This document shows positions 1,051 to 7,650 of a stretch of 8,553 bases of DNA, in pieces (the first letter of the stretch is position 1; each line of letters begins with the position of its first letter). Location: the IMG/VR virus record IMGVR_UViG_2617270968_000006; one strand, written 5' to 3'. The DNA comes from a virus. Lineage: Duplodnaviria; Heunggongvirae; Uroviricota; Caudoviricetes. The notes beneath the pieces are model-generated. The model saw only the letters and a list, made by a program, of their open reading frames with translations, was not told the origin of the DNA and did no database searches. A program made the position numbers and the translations under genes.

Positions 1051-1344
1051 TTAGCCAATCCTTTTCGCGGAGTGGTTGGATTCTGTTGACTCTGGCCCAC
1101 TGTGCGCGAGAGACGGTGCGATTTGTCCCGCTTCCGGCGCTGTTTTATCTGTCATGAGCCATAGTGTGTATTTTTGGAACTGAGGTGCATTGGTGACCTG
1201 CAACACAACTTGGATGCCAGGGTCTTGATGGCCTCCTTCGTAATTCTTTAGCGTTCCTAACGCTATGCCGCTGATTTCACTGAATTTTGCTTGAGTTAGC
1301 CCTTCCGATTGTCTTATTGCTCTTAATTTCTGTGCGATATTCAT
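1051..1344 (-). CDS. C: P2 C-type immunity repressor homolog, 97 aa (internal start of the 158-aa track ORF)
   Basis: Translation MNIAQKLRAIRQSEGLTQAKFSEISGIALGTLKNYEGG... has an N-terminal HTH and a C-terminal segment (QFQKYTLWLMTDKTAPEAGQIAPSLAHSG) strongly reminiscent of P2 C. Sits immediately upstream of and co-oriented with int, as in P2. Start chosen at ATG 1342-1344 because the longer form would overlap the divergent promoter region. Confidence 0.8.
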   Translation of the reverse strand: MNIAQKLRAIRQSEGLTQAKFSEISGIALGTLKNYEGGHQDPGIQVVLQVTNAPQFQKYTLWLMTDKTAPEAGQIAPSLAHSGPESTESNHSAKRIG

Positions 1345-1374
1345 TTGACATAGTCCTGACTTAATGACTATATT
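1345..1374 (+). promoter_or_regulatory. Candidate early promoter (Pe-like) driving cox-B-A: -35 TTGACA (1345-1350), 18-bp spacer, -10 TATATT (1369-1374)
   Basis: Consensus -35 hexamer and near-consensus -10 read directly from the sequence, positioned between the repressor start and cox. Confidence 0.45.
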
Positions 1375-1479: not shown

Positions 1480-1752
1480 ATGGAAGTTAATGATTATGTG
1501 ATTAAGTACCCGCTTGATGCGGTACATGCGGAAAAGTTTGCAGATTTATTGGGTAAACCAAAAACCGCAGTTACAGAAATGATAAAGGCTAACAAGCTAC
1601 CGGTTATCGAGCTTCGAGATCCAAATAAGCCGAAGGCCCGCGCCGGTGAGAAATGGGTTTTCATTCCAGAGTTTAATCGCGCTGTACGTGAGGCGTTTTA
1701 TAACCGACCGGTTGAACAGCGTGATGCATGGCTTTTGTGGATGGGGTTGTGA
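1480..1752 (+). CDS. cox: Cox-like excisionase / early repressor of lysogenic promoter, 90 aa
   Basis: First gene of the rightward operon. Translation carries KLPVIEL.DP...RAGEKWVFIPEFN...RDAWLLWMGL, which resembles my recollection of P2 Cox. GAGGG RBS 8 nt upstream of ATG 1480. Confidence 0.75.
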   Translation: MEVNDYVIKYPLDAVHAEKFADLLGKPKTAVTEMIKANKLPVIELRDPNKPKARAGEKWVFIPEFNRAVREAFYNRPVEQRDAWLLWMGL

Positions 1753-1754
1753 TT

Positions 1755-1925
1755 ATGAATGAGCCGCGTTGTATTGCGCAGTTACTGCGTAACGAAAGCC
1801 CCAGGGCGATTGACTTCACCATCACCCACGGGAAGGGACGCAAGGGAATCATTATCCGCACCAAAAAACAGAGTCCGTTAAAAAAGGCTCTGACCTTTCT
1901 GAAAAGCCGGAGGGTATGGAAATGA
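1755..1925 (+). CDS. Small hypothetical protein, 56 aa, in the position of P2 orf78
   Basis: ATG at 1755 three nt after the cox stop; basic small protein; assignment by synteny only. Confidence 0.5.
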   Translation: MNEPRCIAQLLRNESPRAIDFTITHGKGRKGIIIRTKKQSPLKKALTFLKSRRVWK

Positions 1926-2422
1926 CAGTGATGACGCTCAATCTCGTTGAAAAACAGCCAGCAGCTATGCGCCGGATAATTGGTAAGCATCTGGCCGTCC
2001 CTCGCTGGCAGGATACATGTGATTATTATAATCAGATGATGGAGCGCGAACGGCTAACAGTTTGCTTTCATGCGCAGTTAAAACAACGTCACGCAACGAT
2101 GCGTTTTGAAGAAATGAACGACGTCGAACGTGAACGACTGGTATGTGCAATTGATGAATTGCGTGGGGCATTCTCAAAACGCCGTCAGGTTGGCGCAAGT
2201 GAGTATGCATATATTAGTTTTTTAACAGTCAGTCAGCGTCGTACTTTATTTATGCATGCCGGATTGACTGAAAAAGAATTCAACCAGCCATACTGGCGAA
2301 TTAATGAAGAATCATGTTACTGGCGTGATGCTTTATTCCGTGCATTACGTGAATTATTCAGCCTGTTTGAGTATGCACCGACAATTCTGACGTCGGTAAA
2401 ACCAGAGCAATATCTGCATTAA
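1922..2422 (+). CDS. B: P2 B-like replication protein (DnaB helicase loader family), 166 aa
   Basis: Position between cox/orf78 and the small-ORF cluster, and a length equal to P2 B (166 aa when started at ATG 1922, 7 nt after a GGAGGG RBS). Start overlaps the orf78 stop (ATGA). Confidence 0.7.
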   Translation: MTVMTLNLVEKQPAAMRRIIGKHLAVPRWQDTCDYYNQMMERERLTVCFHAQLKQRHATMRFEEMNDVERERLVCAIDELRGAFSKRRQVGASEYAYISFLTVSQRRTLFMHAGLTEKEFNQPYWRINEESCYWRDALFRALRELFSLFEYAPTILTSVKPEQYLH

Positions 2423-2485
2423 GTAATTAACCAGAGTTTTTAACGCACTTAATTGTGCGGGGCTTCTTTTTGCCTGGAGAAAGTC

Positions 2486-2710
2486 ATGCATACAGTTTCT
2501 GAAAATCAGTGCGGTAAATACGCATTACTGCTGCAACAGGCCAGAACCGAAGCACAGGCCGATGCAGCGACGCGCTTTTCTTCTCATCTTGACGCCATGA
2601 TTCGACACATCACAAAGGCGGAGTTATCCCGCGTGGAGATAGTCGAGCTGCTCAGTCAGGAGTCGGAAAAATTTCACAATATCGGATTGTCTCGCGGGGA
2701 GGTGCTTTGA
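2486..2710 (+). CDS. Small hypothetical early protein, 74 aa (P2 orf80 position)
   Basis: GGAGAAAG RBS then ATG at 2486; stop TGA 2708-2710 overlaps the next start (TGATG). Function unknown. Confidence 0.5.
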
Positions 2711-3012
2711 TGTCCTGTTCTCGTTCGGTTGTATTACTGAATAACGCCTTAAAAATCGCCGTTATGAAAAATGGCGATTTATCTCTTATTCAACTTGGTC
2801 TTGATAAAGAAAAACGCGAAATAACTGAGTCTGTTATCGCGATTTATCAGAATGAATTAAATATCCTGTCTGATGTGGTCAATTTACTTGTTAAACGCGC
2901 TGTATTTCACAAGCAAATCTCCTCCGTGGATGAACTGACGAAATTAACGACAGAAATTGCCAGCTATTGCGCTGATGAATTTAAAAAACTTAACGACAAA
3001 AGGAGCTGGTAA
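2710..3012 (+). CDS. Small hypothetical early protein, 100 aa (P2 orf81 position)
   Basis: ATG at 2710 overlapping the upstream stop; stop TAA 3010-3012 overlaps the next ATG (TAATG). No recognisable motif. Confidence 0.5.
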   Translation: MSCSRSVVLLNNALKIAVMKNGDLSLIQLGLDKEKREITESVIAIYQNELNILSDVVNLLVKRAVFHKQISSVDELTKLTTEIASYCADEFKKLNDKRSW

Positions 3013-3236
3013 TGCCGGACAACGTGGATTTTATTCAGGAACAACAGGCTGAATTACTGGAGCGTCAGATTAACGCGGCAAGGGTAAAACATTGCGGTGC
3101 TTCTGCGCTGGTTTGCGAAGAGTGTGACGCGCCAATACCTGCTGCCCGTCGTGCGGCTTATCCGTCAGCCACGCGTTGTGTTTCCTGTCAGTCAGTCTTT
3201 GAAGCAAAAAACAAACATTACCGGAGAACGGCATGA
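3012..3236 (+). CDS. TraR/DksA-family C4 zinc-finger protein, 74 aa (P2 orf82 position)
   Basis: AAAGGAG RBS before ATG 3012. Translation contains CEEC-x17-CVSC, the CxxC-x17-CxxC spacing characteristic of DksA/TraR zinc fingers. Confidence 0.7.
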   Translation: MPDNVDFIQEQQAELLERQINAARVKHCGASALVCEECDAPIPAARRAAYPSATRCVSCQSVFEAKNKHYRRTA

Positions 3237-3508
3237 GTATTCGTATTGAAATTGGCGAACGTTATGTCGTTACCAGTGACAGCTTTCAGTTTATTCTCCA
3301 CGAGAAAAAGAGAGCGGAAAGCGGTAAAAACGCCGGTCAGGAATGGCTGGCGGTGGTTGGTTATTGCCCGAAATTAAGCCAGCTCGTTTCCGGCCTGATG
3401 CATCACGATATTCTGACCGGAAGCGCAAAGTCTTTTGCTGATTTAAACGCGCAGGTTGAGCAACTCAGCAGGCGTTGTTCAGAGGCTTTGGGCTCATATG
3501 GCCGTTAA
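3233..3508 (+). CDS. Small hypothetical early protein, 91 aa (P2 orf83 position)
   Basis: ATG 3233 overlaps the orf82 stop (ATGA); its own stop overlaps the start of A by about 11 nt. Confidence 0.5.
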   Translation: MSIRIEIGERYVVTSDSFQFILHEKKRAESGKNAGQEWLAVVGYCPKLSQLVSGLMHHDILTGSAKSFADLNAQVEQLSRRCSEALGSYGR

Positions 3509-5735
3509 AGCCTCCGGGCGTTTTGTCCCTCCGTCAGCATATGCCGCAGGCACCGGTAAGACGTTTACCGGTGCTTATGCATGGAACGCGCCACGCGAGG
3601 CTGTCGGGCGCGAAAGACCCCTTACACGTGACGAGATGCGTCAGGTGCAAGGTGTTTTATCCACGATTAACCGCCTGCCTTACTTTTTACGCTCGCTGTT
3701 TACTTCACGCTATGACTACATCCGGCGCAATAAAAGCCCGGTGCACGGGTTTTATTTCCTCACATCCACTTTTCAGCGTCGTTTATGGCCGCGCATTGAG
3801 CGTGTGAATCAGCGCCATGAAATGAACACCGACGCGTCGTTGCTGTTTCTGGCAGAGCGTGACCACTATGCGCGCCTGCCGGGAATGAATGACAAGGAGC
3901 TGAAAAAGTTTGCTGCCCGTATCTCATCGCAGCTTTTCATGATGTATGAGGAACTCTGCGATGCCTGGGTTGATGCACATGGCGAAAAAGAATCGCTGTT
4001 TACGGATGAGGCGCAGGCTCACCTCTATGGTCATGTTGCTGGCGCTGCATGTGCTTTCAATATTTCCCCGCTCTACTGGAAAAAATACCGTAAAGGACAG
4101 ATGACCACGAGGCAGGCATATTCTGCCATTGCCCGCCTGTTTAACGATGAGTGGTGGACTCATCAGCTTAAAGGCCAGCGTATGCGCTGGCATGAGGCGT
4201 TACTGATTGCTGTCGGGGAGGTCAATAAAGACCGTTCTCCTTATGCCAGTAAACATGCCATTCGGGATGTGCGTGCACGCCGCCAGGCAAATCTGGAATT
4301 TCTTAAATCGTGTGACCTTGAAAACAGGGAAACCGGCGAGCGCATCGACCTTATCAGTAAGGTGATGGGCAGTATTTCTAATCCTGAAATTCGCCGGATG
4401 GAGCTGATGAACACCATCGCTGGAATTGAGCGTTACGCCGCCGCAGAGGGTGATGTGGGGATGTTTATCACGCTGACCGCGCCGTCAAAGTATCACCCGA
4501 CTCGTCAGGTCAGAAAAGGCGAAAGTAAAACCGTTCAGCTTAATCACGGCTGGAACGATGAGGCATTTAATCCAAAGGATGCGCAGCGTTATCTCTGCCG
4601 TATCTGGAGCCTGATGCGCACGGCATTCAAGGATAATGATTTACAGGTCTACGGTTTGCGTGTCGTCGAGCCACACCACGACGGAACGCCGCACTGGCAT
4701 ATGATGCTTTTTTGTAATCCACGCCAGCGCAACCAGATTATCGAAATCATGCGTCGCTATGCGCTCAAAGAGGATGGCGACGAAAGAGGAGCCGCGCGAA
4801 ACCGTTTTCAGGCAAAACACCTTAACCGGGGCGGTGCTGCGGGATATATCGCGAAATACATTTCAAAAAACATCGACGGCTATGCACTGGATGGTCAGCT
4901 CGATAATGATACCGGTAGGCCGCTGAAAGACACAGCTGCGGCTGTTACCGCATGGGCGTCAACGTGGCGCATTCCGCAATTTAAAACGGTTGGCCTGCCG
5001 ACAATGGGGGCTTACCGTGAACTACGCAAATTGCCTCGCGGCGTCAGCATTGCTGATGAGTTTGACGAGCGCGTCGAGGCTGCACGCGCCGCTGCAGACA
5101 GTGGTGATTTTGCGTTGTATATCAGCGCGCAGGGCGGGGCAAATGTCCCGCGCGATTGTCAGACTGTCAGGGTCGCCCGTAGCCCGTCGGATGACGTTAA
5201 CGAGTACGAGGAAGAAGTCGAGAGAGTGGTCGGCATTTACGCGCCGCATCTCGGCGCGCGTCATATTCATATCACCAGAACGACGGACTGGCGCATTGTG
5301 CCGAAAGTTCCGGTCGTTGAGCCTTTGACTTTAAAAAGCGGCATCGCCGCGCCTCGGAGTCCTGTCAATAACTGTGGAAAGCTCACCGGTGGTGATACTT
5401 CGTTACCGGCTCCCACATCTTCTGAGCACGCCGCAGCAGTGCTAAATCTGGTTGAAGACGGTGTTATCGAATGGAATGACCCGGAGGTCGTGAGGACGCT
5501 CAGGGGTGCATTAAAACACGGCCTGAGAACACCAAATCGTCAGCAAAGAAACGGAATCCCGTTAAAACCGCATGAAATTGCACCATCTGCCAGACTGACC
5601 AGGTCTGAACGATTGCAAATTACCCGTAGCGGATATCGCGCGCGGCGGGATAGAACGAGCGAACGAGCTGGAACACGCCGACACCGAGGCCGGTGGCATC
5701 AATTCCGATGTATTCGACGTTGTATTTTTCGGTGA
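3498..5735 (+). CDS. A: P2 A-like rolling-circle replication initiator (HUH endonuclease), C-terminally disrupted: native sequence appears to end near 5625 and the last ~35 codons read through into antisense terminase DNA
   Basis: Start MAVKASGRFVPP at ATG 3498. HUH motif PHWHMML (HWH codons 4692-4700) and a YIAKYISK double-tyrosine motif (Tyr codons 4845-4847 and 4857-4859), as in phiX174/P2 A proteins. Tail SGYRARRDRTSERAGTRRHRGRW is arginine-rich junk overlapping the minus-strand P fragment. Confidence 0.85.
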   Translation: MAVKASGRFVPPSAYAAGTGKTFTGAYAWNAPREAVGRERPLTRDEMRQVQGVLSTINRLPYFLRSLFTSRYDYIRRNKSPVHGFYFLTSTFQRRLWPRIERVNQRHEMNTDASLLFLAERDHYARLPGMNDKELKKFAARISSQLFMMYEELCDAWVDAHGEKESLFTDEAQAHLYGHVAGAACAFNISPLYWKKYRKGQMTTRQAYSAIARLFNDEWWTHQLKGQRMRWHEALLIAVGEVNKDRSPYASKHAIRDVRARRQANLEFLKSCDLENRETGERIDLISKVMGSISNPEIRRMELMNTIAGIERYAAAEGDVGMFITLTAPSKYHPTRQVRKGESKTVQLNHGWNDEAFNPKDAQRYLCRIWSLMRTAFKDNDLQVYGLRVVEPHHDGTPHWHMMLFCNPRQRNQIIEIMRRYALKEDGDERGAARNRFQAKHLNRGGAAGYIAKYISKNIDGYALDGQLDNDTGRPLKDTAAAVTAWASTWRIPQFKTVGLPTMGAYRELRKLPRGVSIADEFDERVEAARAAADSGDFALYISAQGGANVPRDCQTVRVARSPSDDVNEYEEEVERVVGIYAPHLGARHIHITRTTDWRIVPKVPVVEPLTLKSGIAAPRSPVNNCGKLTGGDTSLPAPTSSEHAAAVLNLVEDGVIEWNDPEVVRTLRGALKHGLRTPNRQQRNGIPLKPHEIAPSARLTRSERLQITRSGYRARRDRTSERAGTRRHRGRWHQFRCIRRCIFR

Positions 5736-6180
5736 GTTTGCGGATGGATTCAGCCTGGGTGGCAAAGTCCATGCCTTTCCACTGGTGACGCTCAAGTATT
5801 CTGAATTTGCCACCGGCCACCACCGGCGGTGCCAGTACCACGCATCCGGCGCTGTCGCCACGGTGTGACGGGTCGTAACCAATCCATACCGGGCGGGATC
5901 CGAACGGATTGGCGGCAAACGGCGCATAGTCTTCCCATTCTTCCAGCGTGTCGACCATGCAGCGTTGCAGCTCCTCGAACGGGAACACCGACGCCTTGTC
6001 GTCAACAAATTCACACATGAACAGGTTTTTAAAATCGTCGGCGCTGTTTTCGCGTTTAAGCTGCTCAATGTCGAACAGCGTGCAGCCACCTTTCAGGGCG
6101 TCCTCAATGGTGACAATCTGCCGCCACTGGCCGTCCGCACAGAGAAGCCCACCGGCAAGGGCGTTATGTCCCGCCGACAC
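5620..6180 (-). pseudogene. Fragment (about 186 codons) of terminase large subunit (P2 gpP-like), nuclease-domain region; N-terminal ATPase portion deleted
   Basis: Translation contains WIGYDPSHRGDSAGCVVLAPP and EYIGIDATGLGVGV, typical acidic-residue motifs of the terminase RNase-H-like nuclease domain. Minus-strand orientation relative to A matches P2, where Q and P are transcribed opposite to A. Far too short for a terminase. Confidence 0.7.
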
Positions 6181-6185
6181 CGGCC

Positions 6186-6746
6186 GTGATGGAATCTGAC
6201 ACCGATTATCGTCTGCGTATTCAGCAGGCCTTTGAAGGTTTAAGCGTCGCCGGGTCGGTGGGTGCCTATCAGTATCATGGTCGCAGTGCTGACGGGCGTG
6301 TCGCGGATATCTCTGTCACCAGTCCGTCTCCGGCCTGCGTCACCATCTCTGTGCTGTCACGTGAAAATAACGGTGTCGCATCCGAAGACCTGCTGGCGGT
6401 GGTGCGTAACGCCCTTAATGGCGAGGACGTCAGGCCGGTGGCCGACCGCGTGACCGTGCAGTCTGCCGCCATCGTTGAATATCAGATAAACGCCACGCTT
6501 TACCTTTACCCTGGTCCCGAAAGCGAACCCATTCGCGCTGCCGCTGTGAAAAAGCTGGAAGCGTATATCACGGCACAGCACCGGCTGGGGCGCGACATCC
6601 GTTTGTCTGCCATTTATGCCGCTTTGCATGTGGAAGGCGTGCAGCGTGTCGAGCTGGCCGCACCACTGGCCGACATTGTGCTCAACAGTACGCAGGCGTC
6701 TTTCTGTACCGAATACCGCGTCGTGACCGGAGGCTCGGATGAGTGA
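6186..6746 (+). pseudogene. C-terminal fragment (about 186 aa) of baseplate assembly protein J-like; 5' part deleted
   Basis: Directly followed by an overlapping ATGAGTGA junction with the gpI start, as for J/I in P2; abuts the terminase fragment with no intervening genes. Confidence 0.65.
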
Positions 6747-6903
6747 TTCGCGACTGCTGCCGACTGGCTCATCACCGCTTGAAGTTGCCGCCGCAAAAGC
6801 CTGTGCGGAAATTGAAAAAACGCCGGTCAGTATTCGTGAGCTGTGGAACCCGGATACCTGCCCGGCAAATCTGCTGCCGTGGCTGGCGTGGTCATTTTCG
6901 GTT
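6739..6903 (+). pseudogene. N-terminal fragment (about 55 aa) of baseplate protein I-like; remainder deleted
   Basis: MSDSRLLPTGSSPLEVAAAKACAEIEKTPVSIRELWNPDTCPANLLPWLAW matches my recollection of the P2 gpI N-terminus; the frame then degenerates and terminates at 6966. Confidence 0.6.
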
Positions 6904-6939
6904 GGCGGAGTTCTCCATCAGCCTGGCTACCGGTCGGGC

Positions 6940-7114
6940 AGATATTTACACGGAAACACCGGTTAAAGTGTCAGGCTTTAAGCGCGTCATAGACGAGCAG
7001 GACTGGACAATCACTAAGGTGACACATTTTCTGAATAATAGCGGCTTCACGACGTCCTTGGAGCTTGAGGTCAGGCTTTCTGATGTGGAGTACGAAACAG
7101 AAGATGATGAGTGA
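6940..7114 (+). pseudogene. C-terminal fragment of tail protein D-like (last ~60 aa), ending with an acidic tail EYETEDDE immediately upstream of ogr
   Basis: Different reading frame from the I fragment; position immediately upstream of ogr matches P2 gene order (D-ogr). Start of homology is approximate. Confidence 0.55.
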
Positions 7115-7195
7115 TGTTTTTGTTTTATCTGTTTGTTTTATAAGGATAAATTAACTAAAATGGCACCATCAACAAAACCGGAAGAGGTGCTCGCG

Positions 7196-7414
7196 ATGTT
7201 TCATTGTCCTTTATGCCAGCATGCCGCACATGCGCGTACAAGCCGCTATATCACTGACACGACAAAAGAGCGTTATCACCAGTGTCAGAACGTGAATTGC
7301 AGCGCCACGTTCATCACCTATGAGTCGGTACAGAGATACATCGTGAAGCCGGGAGAAGTCCACGCCGTAAGGCCGCACCCGTTGCCGTCAGGGCAGCAAA
7401 TTATGTGGATGTGA
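7196..7414 (+). CDS. ogr: Ogr late-gene transcription activator (zinc-finger), 72 aa, intact
   Basis: MFHCPLCQHAAHARTSRYITDTTKERYHQCQNVNCSATFITYESVQRYIVKPGEVHAVRPHPLPSGQQIMWM corresponds to P2 Ogr as I recall it, with Cys4 motif CPLC...CQNVNC. GAAGAGG RBS before ATG 7196. Confidence 0.9.
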   Translation: MFHCPLCQHAAHARTSRYITDTTKERYHQCQNVNCSATFITYESVQRYIVKPGEVHAVRPHPLPSGQQIMWM

Positions 7415-7424
7415 TCACAAAAAT

Positions 7425-7450
7425 AGCCCCTCAGTTGAGGGGCTTTATTT
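7425..7450 (+). terminator. Rho-independent terminator after ogr
   Basis: Stem AGCCCCTC (7425-7432), loop AGTT, GAGGGGCT (7437-7444), followed by TTTATTT. Confidence 0.7.
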
Positions 7451-7457
7451 ATGGTCG

Positions 7458-7476
7458 ATGTGGACGCTATGTGGAC
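7458..7476 (+). repeat. Two direct repeats ATGTGGAC (7458-7465 and 7469-7476); candidate integrase arm-type binding sites of the att P-arm
   Basis: Direct repeats seen in the sequence; they resemble my recollection of the P2 Int arm-site consensus (TGTGGACA-like) and sit where the P arm should be (just after ogr). A third similar copy, ATGTGGAT, lies at the ogr 3' end (7403-7410). Confidence 0.5.
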
Positions 7477-7542
7477 AGCGGTTGACATAAATCCATTTAT
7501 ATCATCAGGTTAGGTGCTTTTTTGTGACACCATCCCTGTCTT

Positions 7543-7569
7543 CCCCCACATGCTGTGGGGGTTTTTTTT
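7543..7569 (+). terminator. Rho-independent terminator-like hairpin; possibly the 3' end of the host gene at the att core
   Basis: Stem CCCCCACA (7543-7550), loop TGC, TGTGGGGG (7554-7561), then T8 (7562-7569). Confidence 0.65.
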
Positions 7570-7597
7570 ATCCTCAATTTGCCTGCTGCTTAATGCA

Positions 7598-7624
7598 TTG
7601 CAGATGATTTGCTTCCGTTATACT
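7598..7624 (+). promoter_or_regulatory. Weak candidate fieF promoter: -35 TTGCAG (7598-7603), -10 TATACT (7619-7624), 15-bp spacer
   Basis: Hexamer matches only; spacer is suboptimal. Confidence 0.3.
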
Positions 7625-7650
7625 AGCGTCAGTTGATAGCGGGAGTATTT

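Follow-up and report, generated by a model that had tools for sequence, protein, structure and literature searches.

Four small early genes of a deleted P2-like prophage in Escherichia coli correspond to orf80 to orf83 of phage P2 and include a TraR-type protein

What are the four small open reading frames (ORFs) that lie intact on the + strand between P2-type genes B and A in an 8,553-nucleotide stretch of viral DNA (the window), and why did they survive while the prophage around them lost about 26 kb? A preliminary description, made from the letters and an ORF list, presented them as coupled early ORFs of unknown role and read their retention as a possible sign of usefulness to the host or the element. 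Here, by sequence, the four ORFs are orf80, orf81, orf82, and orf83 of phage P2, which are already catalogued. The cassette sits in a young, triply deleted prophage located between cpxP and fieF in an E. coli strain. With high confidence, the whole is best explained as a P2-like (Peduovirus) early-operon cassette that is carried unchanged in a recent remnant.

The arrangement of four small overlapping ORFs with TGATG, TAATG, and ATGA junctions was confirmed by sequence reading and the ORF list (Table 1). The overlap is 1 nt at both the orf80/orf81 junction (TGATG) and the orf81/orf82 junction (TAATG), 4 nt at the orf82/orf83 junction (ATGA), and 11 nt between orf83 and gene A. A Shine-Dalgarno sequence (GGAG, GGAGG, or AGGAG) is placed 6 to 7 nt 5' of each start codon; that of orf80 is GGAG, 6 nt 5' of its ATG. 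When all four genes were compared with their homologs in other genera, dN/dS was 0.06 to 0.34 where dS could be estimated, values that are rough with dS near saturation, and all four products scored above curated Pfam thresholds. Thus, the four ORFs are, on this comparative evidence, real genes and not chance frames.

Table 1. Features of the early region and the four-gene cassette, with positions in the window
Feature	Position	Strand	Description and evidence
Immunity repressor	1051..1344	-	C-type HTH protein, 97 aa; gene call and HTH_3/HTH_19 matches on the identical source contig
Early promoter (Pe)-like site	1345..1374	+	TTGACA-18-TATATT; 11/12 consensus match only
cox homolog	1480..1752	+	First early-operon gene; Pfam Phage_Cox, 87 bits; just 39/91 residues identical to P2 Cox
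orf78 homolog	1755..1925	+	56 aa; 56/56 identical to P2 Orf78; phrog_273
Gene B	1922..2422	+	Replication, lagging-strand synthesis; one substitution vs P2 gpB; P2 annotation; Phage_RepB
Hairpin (putative)	2444..2471	+	CGCAC-TTAATT-GTGCG then GGGCTTCTTTTT; between B and orf80; terminator scan and P2 annotation
orf80 homolog	2486..2710	+	74 aa, ATG 2486 to TGA 2710; DUF2732; 73/74 identical to P2 Orf80; phrog_128
orf81 homolog	2710..3012	+	100 aa, ATG 2710 to TAA 3012; DUF5405; 95/100 identical to P2 Orf81
orf82	3012..3236	+	74 aa, ATG 3012 to TGA 3236; TraR-type C4 zinc-finger protein; 74/74 identical to P2 Orf82
orf83 homolog	3233..3508	+	91 aa, ATG 3233 to TAA 3508; second DUF5405 protein; 87/91 identical to P2 Orf83
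Gene A, truncated	3498..5735	+	Rolling-circle replication endonuclease, ATG at 3498; Phage_GPA domain; blastn map

The DNA was 97.6% identical to P2 over positions 2423 to 3508, and the coding sequences corresponded one to one. The remnant and P2 (AF063097, positions 27022 to 28044) have in common the gene order, the start/stop overlaps, the upstream hairpin, and the flanking genes B and A. The two cassettes differ by a few substitutions, Y45C and F86L of Orf83 among them; the remnant phage is deleted, and its immunity region is not that of P2. The synteny B - hairpin - orf80 - orf81 - orf82 - orf83 - A is that of the P2 (Peduovirus) cassette, and 75 phage records matched it at 90 to 99% identity. 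P2 orf80 to orf83 are reportedly the subject of a 1993 paper by Liu, Saha and Haggard-Ljungquist in J Mol Biol 231:361. Annotation of these genes in P2 goes back to the 1990s, and the cassette carries little weight as a discovery.

The surroundings of the cassette were mapped by blastn against P2. Window positions 1754 to 5628 were colinear with P2 26290 to 30164 at 97.4% identity, and positions 5626 to 6168 corresponded to P2 1500 to 2042. The P2-homologous part of gene A stops at 5628, and a fused fragment of terminase gene P follows. No match to P2 was obtained upstream of 1754, and the immunity type of the remnant differs from that of P2. The Pe-like site is placed relative to C and cox in the same way as the annotated Pe of P2, and in the remnant the C-type repressor is expected to prevent expression of the early operon.

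Coupled expression of the cassette from the early promoter had also been proposed, and this held in part. The four genes belong to the early operon, and their geometry is consistent with translational coupling to one another and to A. In contrast, B is not coupled to orf80, and the two are set apart by a 63-nt spacer that contains a hairpin and a T-tract. In P2, this hairpin is the feature annotated as a "putative rho-independent terminator" (26980 to 27007). The terminator scan gave a stem of 5 bp with 4 GC pairs, plus GGGCUUCUUUUU. Across 14/14 loci from several genera, 100% of the stem cells were paired, with compensatory changes at 3/5 stem pairs. The covariation score was 0.547, compared with 0.286 after shuffling (0/500), and came out much lower in slid controls; the fold energy of the spacer was unexceptional (z = -1.1). 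A GC-rich hairpin, an adjoining T-tract, and a conserved structure are the sequence features of an intrinsic terminator, and positions 2444 to 2471 are probably an intrinsic terminator or attenuator. Because this conserved hairpin and T-tract part B from orf80, the coupling of the cassette to the early promoter probably passes via an attenuator.

A parallel to this hairpin, including the GGGC(A/T)TCTTTT tract, is found in tR1 of phage 186 (NC_001317). The order in 186 is tR1 - DUF2732 gene - DksA-like gene - exonuclease-like gene - DUF5405 gene - orf84 - A. As in the P2 cassette, a terminator is followed by DUF2732, TraR-like, and DUF5405 genes that run with 1- or 4-nt overlaps into an A replicase, and the DUF5405 protein of 186 is 52% identical to Orf83. 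Unlike P2, phage 186 lacks a second DUF5405 gene of the Orf81 type, carries two extra genes (exonuclease-like and PAPS-reductase-like), and keeps B outside the early operon, with fil and dhr preceding the terminator. The 186 record annotates the homologous genes as "not essential" and remarks that A seems to need translation of the ORF that precedes it. No relevant literature was found on antitermination at 186 tR1. The layout of the cassette varies and comprises 80-83 only, 80-82-83, or all four genes.

For one of the four proteins, the label "unknown role" did not hold, as the biochemistry of P2 Orf82 has been published (Gopalkrishnan 2022, PMC9239242). The exact CxxC-x17-CxxC signature of the DksA/TraR family that was noticed at first was found as CEEC-x17-CVSC at residues 35 to 59. 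Orf82 scored 43.6 bits against PF01258 (cutoff, 24.9) and 78.3 bits against TIGR02419 C4_traR_proteo (cutoff, 59.7; residues 3 to 64), and its residues 14 to 71 aligned to the TraR chains 5w1s_M and 6n57_M. With 74 aa and no long DksA coiled coil, it has the TraR-size architecture and falls in that subfamily. The zinc-finger spacing, the conservation of which had been suggested as a check, was kept at x17 in 27/27 TraR homologs from other genera; this count includes L024, for which a spacing of 20 was a regex artefact caused by an extra upstream Cys. D-x-x-D near the N terminus was present in 26/27 homologs, and the exception, L033, is N-terminally frameshifted. In Orf82, the N terminus MPDNVDFI contains D3 and D6, with I8 in place of A8 of the DxxDxA motif, whereas more distant homologs have the full motif (MADAMDLA).

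[quoted passage not shown] In the same study, the in vitro activity of Orf82 was 5-fold below that of TraR, and the missing A8 was noted and tied to the lower activity (PMC9239242). Overexpression of Orf82 led to growth arrest according to Liu et al. 1993, as that work is cited in PMC9239242. F-plasmid TraR and lambda Orf73 (PDB 5W1S, 6N57) resemble Orf82 in size (about 73 to 74 aa), in the N-terminal helix with D3 and D6, in the C4 finger CxxC-x17-CxxC, and in the C-terminal helix ending in KHY, as well as in secondary-channel binding, ppGpp-free inhibition of rrnB P1, and complementation of a dksA null. Their IC50 is about 50 nM, compared with 250 nM for Orf82 with its I8, and lambda Orf73 differs from Orf82 in the 2- to 4-fold activation of thrABC/argI by the latter. 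Since the Orf82 of the remnant is identical to the characterised P2 protein, the suggestion that the zinc-finger protein may reprogram host transcription describes an activity that has already been demonstrated.

When the phage is functional, transcription that starts at Pe would pass through cox, orf78, and B, meet the hairpin and T-tract, where it would probably be attenuated, and continue through the four small genes into replication gene A. The 1-, 1-, 4-, and 11-nt overlaps, each start having its own Shine-Dalgarno sequence, may chain translation into A. The N-terminal helix of Orf82, with D3 and D6, would reach the active site of RNA polymerase via the secondary channel, with the C4 zinc globule at the channel entrance. 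Promoters of rRNA and ribosomal proteins would be inhibited and amino-acid promoters activated without ppGpp, as shown for the identical P2 protein, and host resources would be diverted during lytic growth. In the remnant, the cassette would probably be silent under the intact C repressor, and it is most likely intact because the remnant is recent and not through host selection.

Alternatively, the host might keep the cassette, especially the TraR-like protein, for a benefit to the bacterium or the element, such as a switch of the stringent type that needs no ppGpp. None of the four ORFs is disrupted despite the loss of DNA elsewhere in the prophage, members of the TraR family are able to replace DksA in a dksA null (PMC9239242), and E. 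coli genomes carry the cassette very commonly: the region was present in 1672/5426 complete genomes (31%), with the same four genes annotated by PGAP. However, the truncated A protein that marks the remnant was found in 3 contigs from 2 assemblies only; the whole window was not contiguous in any of the 5426 complete genomes. By blastn against P2, the remnant has three colinear deletions, and the cassette lies inside the single undeleted block 1754 to 5628, in which orf78 and B are, like int, C, and cox, equally intact. When the cassette was compared with that of the intact prophage of strain 4/4, which occupies the same cpxP-fieF site, 4 nt differed in 1023 (99.6% identity), which leaves no time for decay. 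The sole amino-acid changes, Y45C and F86L in Orf83, fall at positions conserved in >=90% of homologs and are absent from all 35 homologs compared, a pattern that does not point to purifying selection.

In addition, Pe should be kept off by the C repressor, which is intact, the reported growth arrest speaks against a benefit from Orf82, and most E. coli copies appear, from flanking annotation and uncounted, to belong to full-length prophages. Thus, the argument from retention to usefulness fails because the remnant is confined to 2 assemblies, the cassette lies in one undeleted block and is nearly identical to that of an intact prophage, and the only protein changes hit conserved sites. With a rare remnant, a 99.6% identical cassette, and equally intact neighbours, the genes do not show the marks of domesticated, host-selected genes, and we regard such domestication as extremely improbable. 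Survival of the four genes in the remnant corresponds to chance expectation. Disruption in most remnants had been named as an outcome that would count against the earlier view; the cassette was instead intact in most E. coli copies, and its conservation reflects selection in functional phages, not in remnants.

With Orf82 accounted for by the P2 cassette, the other three proteins were assigned to families. Orf80 matched PF10809 (DUF2732) with 39.9 bits (cutoff, 25), and both Orf81 (117.4 bits, profile 1-88/88) and Orf83 (41.8 bits, profile 1-84/88) matched PF17399 (DUF5405; cutoff, 21.6), as did 69/85 distant Orf83 relatives. The view that these ORFs have no recognisable motif is therefore true for function, as DUF2732 and DUF5405 are defined by sequence alone and imply none, but not for family membership. 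Orf81 and Orf83 appear to be distant paralogs on the strength of the Pfam model and of members that match both PHROG families; compared directly, the two gave no BLASTP match, and hhalign of the narrow family alignments gave a probability of 18%. The AF2 model of Orf83 (pLDDT 77) has four strands and two helices, while that of Orf81 (pLDDT 56.5), built on a shallow alignment of 85 to 99% identity, was unusable. A Foldseek search against BFVD matched only other uncharacterised DUF5405 proteins, and a PDB profile search returned nothing for Orf80. In the literature searched, DUF5405/DUF2732 and orf80/81/83 appeared only in tables, listed as "unknown."

Could Orf81 and Orf83, perhaps with Orf80, help the A endonuclease at ori as accessory factors of replication initiation? 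The families phrog_265 and phrog_154 are labelled "replication initiation protein," but this label goes back to unreviewed submitter names, the UniRef entry "Relication initiation protein" and phage phiKT, and it was not substantiated for the phrog_154 and phrog_265 proteins. Across many genera, Orf83 of P2-like prophages adjoins A and overlaps it, and the 186 DUF5405 gene lies upstream of A in a common operon. However, the 186 homolog is among the genes marked "not essential," and the DUF5405 homolog of lambdoid phage HK140 lies between a recT-type gene and the point where the early accessory block ends, and no replication gene is annotated within 3 kb of it. DUF5405 homologs also occur in N4-like, T4-like, and SPO1-like phages without an A-type replicase. 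A marginal profile match linked DUF5405 to the relaxosome accessory factor PcfF (whole-sequence E, 0.004), but the domain i-Evalue was 0.19 over generic helices, and the match was discounted as evidence. No DNA-binding or known initiator fold was recovered in the structure and profile searches. A dedicated role in replication initiation is thus quite unlikely.

Somewhat less doubtful, though still unlikely, is that Orf80, Orf81, and Orf83 are anti-defence or other host-takeover factors that inhibit a host protein early in infection. The proteins are small, belong to the early genes, seem dispensable, and vary in their presence; the HK140 homolog has ral and sieB nearby in an early accessory region; and DUF5405 is a wide-ranging family that spans 1019 clusters at 50% identity and unrelated phage types. 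However, no structural or sequence similarity to characterised inhibitors was found, and NCBIfam and a PADLOC scan, the library of which covers defence and not anti-defence, returned nothing for the three proteins.

Under the P2-like cassette reading, Orf80, Orf81, and Orf83 are early accessory proteins that purifying selection maintains in phages, most likely of the class of dispensable host-takeover or replication-modulating factors. A very unlikely reading is that they form with Orf82 a coordinated host-takeover module in which each protein targets a host machine, such as replication, transcription termination, or a defence system. On that reading, a widespread family, DUF5405, would have an important target; its members span phages, temperate as well as virulent, that infect Gram-negative and Bacillus hosts. 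In a weaker variant, leaky expression of the cassette from remnants could alter host physiology by TraR-like, ppGpp-independent reprogramming. In any case, three very common early phage proteins without an assigned function (one DUF2732 and two DUF5405) are available in a genetically tractable model phage and are easy targets for screens that look for host-takeover or anti-defence activity among phage accessory genes.

Inside orf81, an 11-bp hairpin was considered as a regulatory element and does not look convincingly selected; Escherichia and Scandinavium keep it, but Kosakonia and Serratia have lost it although their peptide is similar.

The four consecutive plus-strand ORFs between genes B and A were found, in the ORF list and in the sequence, at exactly the coordinates proposed in the preliminary description. 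This cassette is an accurately described textbook feature of phage P2, orf80 to orf83, and is already known. When positions 2423-3508 were compared with phage genomes by megablast, 75 records matched at 90-99% identity, and bacteriophage P2 (AF063097) was 97.6% identical over this stretch. In the P2 record, it is annotated as orf80, orf81, orf82, and orf83, flanked by two essential replication genes, B and A. Residues identical to P2 numbered 73/74 for Orf80, 95/100 for Orf81, 74/74 for Orf82, and 87/91 for Orf83. Of 5426 complete E. coli genomes in RefSeq, 1672 contain the 1023-bp region (1594 with coverage of at least 80%), and there it is annotated as DUF2732, DUF5405 (twice), and a TraR/DksA zinc-finger protein.

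Positions of the P2 genes, the spacer hairpin, and the P2-matching blocks
Feature	Position	Strand	Product, sequence, or P2 counterpart	Source or location
orf80 (first ORF)	2486-2710	+	74 aa	ORF list and sequence reading
orf81 (second ORF)	2710-3012	+	100 aa	ORF list and sequence reading
orf82 (third ORF)	3012-3236	+	74 aa	ORF list and sequence reading
orf83 (fourth ORF)	3233-3508	+	91 aa	ORF list and sequence reading
Hairpin and T-tract	2444-2471	+	CGCAC-TTAATT-GTGCG, then GGGCTTCTTTTT	B-orf80 spacer
orf78, B, orf80-83, A without its last 155 nt	1754-5628		P2 26290-30164	blastn
Piece of terminase gene P	5626-6168		P2 1500-2042	blastn
J 3' end and I 5' end	6169-6902		P2 11623-12356	blastn
D 3' end, ogr, att	6901-7504		P2 23742-24342	blastn

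For all four genes, dN/dS against other genera was 0.06-0.34, which marks them as real genes that purifying selection maintains in phages. Among the homologous loci, the layouts B-80-81-82-83-A, B-80-83-A, and 80-82-83-(extra gene)-A were found. The cassette was modular across Enterobacterales (loci L015-L020, L036, L040, and L021-L039): in some prophages, the DUF2732 and Orf83-type genes are the only ones separating B from A; in others, the Orf81-type gene is missing, or an additional gene follows the Orf83-type gene ahead of A. The Orf80-type and Orf83-type genes were the constant pair across layouts, in a search that was seeded with Orf83.

Orf82 passed the threshold of the Pfam model zf-dskA_traR (43.6 bits) and that of the curated TraR subfamily model TIGR02419 (78.3 bits versus a cutoff of 59.7), and it aligned to TraR chains from TraR-RNA polymerase structures. 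Its zinc finger, CEEC-x17-CVSC, bears out the DksA/TraR signature that had been noted in the third ORF, and the x17 spacing was kept in 27 of 27 homologs from other enterobacterial genera. D3 and D6 are present in its N-terminus, MPDNVDFI, and the D-x-x-D motif occurred in 26 of the 27 homologs, the exception (L033) being N-terminally frameshifted. The protein is identical to P2 Orf82 at every residue, and P2 Orf82 has been purified (Gopalkrishnan et al., mBio 2022, PMC9239242). [quoted passage not shown] It inhibits rrnB P1 without ppGpp (IC50, 250 nM), activates thrABC and argI 2-4 fold, and, by complementation, restores growth of a dksA null on minimal medium; it lacks the A of DxxDxA and is expressed from the early promoter Pe (PMC9239242). 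Overexpression of Orf82 is cited there as leading to growth arrest (Liu et al. 1993, cited in PMC9239242). Therefore, the secondary-channel role that had been put forward for this protein is established knowledge.

The other three ORFs had been described as having no recognisable motif, which did not hold: Orf80 belongs to the DUF2732 family, and Orf81 and Orf83 both belong to DUF5405 (117 and 41.8 bits, respectively, versus a cutoff of 21.6). Orf81 and Orf83 are too diverged to match each other by BLASTP, and narrow-alignment profiles of the two show almost no mutual match. When 1.84 billion representatives were searched with an Orf83 family profile, 1019 clusters matched. Among 85 sampled members, 69 matched DUF5405, 84 matched phrog_154, and 3 matched the Orf81-type phrog_265; thus, two phrog_265 members besides Orf81 also match phrog_154. 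The AlphaFold2 model of Orf83 (pLDDT 77) consists of four beta strands followed by two helices, and Foldseek against viral models returned only uncharacterised DUF5405 proteins. The Orf81 model was of too low quality for use, and PDB profile searches with Orf80 and DUF5405 gave no credible match. Both families, DUF2732 and DUF5405, have long been recognised.

The PHROG label "replication initiation protein" goes back to submitter names. In conflict with it, the phage 186 record gives the homolog as "unknown function; not essential," and the label also fits poorly with the homolog in phage HK140, which has no annotated replication gene nearby. Further DUF5405 homologs are carried by N4-like, T4-like, and SPO1-like phages. 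In HK140 (L046, 3001-3282), the homolog lies in a lambdoid early accessory block, with ral and a recT-type gene upstream of it. The lambda TraR homolog Orf73 is located in a comparable accessory region between exo and xis. Thus, DUF5405 and TraR-like genes may travel in early accessory regions of a common kind in unrelated phages.

The junctions of orf80-83 (TGATG, TAATG, and ATGA) are overlaps of 1, 1, and 4 nt, and the ATG of gene A, at 3498, lies 11 nt ahead of the orf83 end. Shine-Dalgarno sequences (GGAG, GGAGG, AGGAG, and GGAG) precede the four starts by 6-7 nt. The five genes from orf80 to A are chained through these overlaps with the same geometry in P2 and 186, and according to the 186 record, translation of A apparently needs the upstream ORF to be translated to its end. 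Thus, the proposed coupled expression from the early promoter stood for these five genes but not for B, which is set apart by a 63-nt spacer with a hairpin. A "putative rho-independent terminator" is annotated at this place in the P2 record. All stem positions were paired in 14 of 14 loci from several genera, with compensatory changes in three of the five pairs. The covariation score was 0.547 versus 0.286 in shuffles (0 of 500 reached 0.547), and slid registers scored much worse. The 186 terminator tR1, annotated as anti-terminated in early lytic development, has the same position and a parallel sequence. Together, the conserved hairpin and this parallel suggest that an attenuation point probably lies upstream of orf80-A.

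Within orf81, an 11-bp inverted repeat, AAATCGCCGTT-ATGAAA-AATGGCGATTT, was observed at 2753-2780 (+), enclosing an in-frame ATG and followed by a T-rich run. The repeat is retained in orf81 of Escherichia and Scandinavium, where one G:C pair has changed to A:T in a compensatory manner. Since it was absent from Kosakonia and Serratia, selection on the repeat is doubtful.

In blastn of the window against the whole P2 genome, four colinear blocks were found; thus, three simple deletions removed about 26 kb. The junctions lie at 5626-5628 (A to P), 6168/6169 (P to J), and 6901-6902 (I to D), colinear with the P2 prophage map, and the adjoining blocks overlap by 3, 0, and 2 nt, respectively. The A-P junction creates a fused A protein of 745 aa (3498-5735) that retains the ori nick region. 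Two assemblies, GCA_000700185.1 and GCA_000700205.1, yielded this fused truncated protein, on three contigs in all; one of these contigs includes an exact copy of the window, located between cpxP and fieF. The window was contiguous in none of the 5426 complete E. coli genomes.

Retention of the four ORFs had been taken as a sign of possible usefulness, which these data do not support. The cassette lies inside a single undeleted block, in which int, C, cox, orf78, and B are also intact, and the truncated A protein, the marker of this remnant, was found in two assemblies. Over 1023 bp, the cassette has 4 differences from the prophage of E. coli strain 4/4, which is intact and likewise located at the cpxP-fieF site; at such low divergence, intact genes are what the null hypothesis predicts. 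One difference is synonymous, in orf82. The other three cause Orf83 Y45C (two adjacent changes) and F86L, in codons 45 and 86 at 3365-3367 and 3490. Y45 and F86 are each shared by at least 90% of 36 family members; the other 35 homologs compared had neither substitution. These few changes do not look like purifying selection in the remnant; they could reflect relaxed constraint, two being too few for a test. With an intact C repressor and a Pe-like promoter, the early operon is predicted to be off in the remnant.

From orf78 onward, the window is about 97% P2. Positions 1-1753 (integrase, repressor, and cox) gave no nucleotide match to P2; the immunity type of this int-C-cox region differs, and 39/91 Cox residues are identical to P2 Cox. 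The transition near 1754 is a heteroimmune mosaic joint. At 1345-1374, a strong promoter-like site, TTGACA-18-TATATT, was observed. Between ogr/attR and fieF, a 40-aa ORF at 7514-7636 (+), a called gene without a family match on the source contig, is probably spurious.
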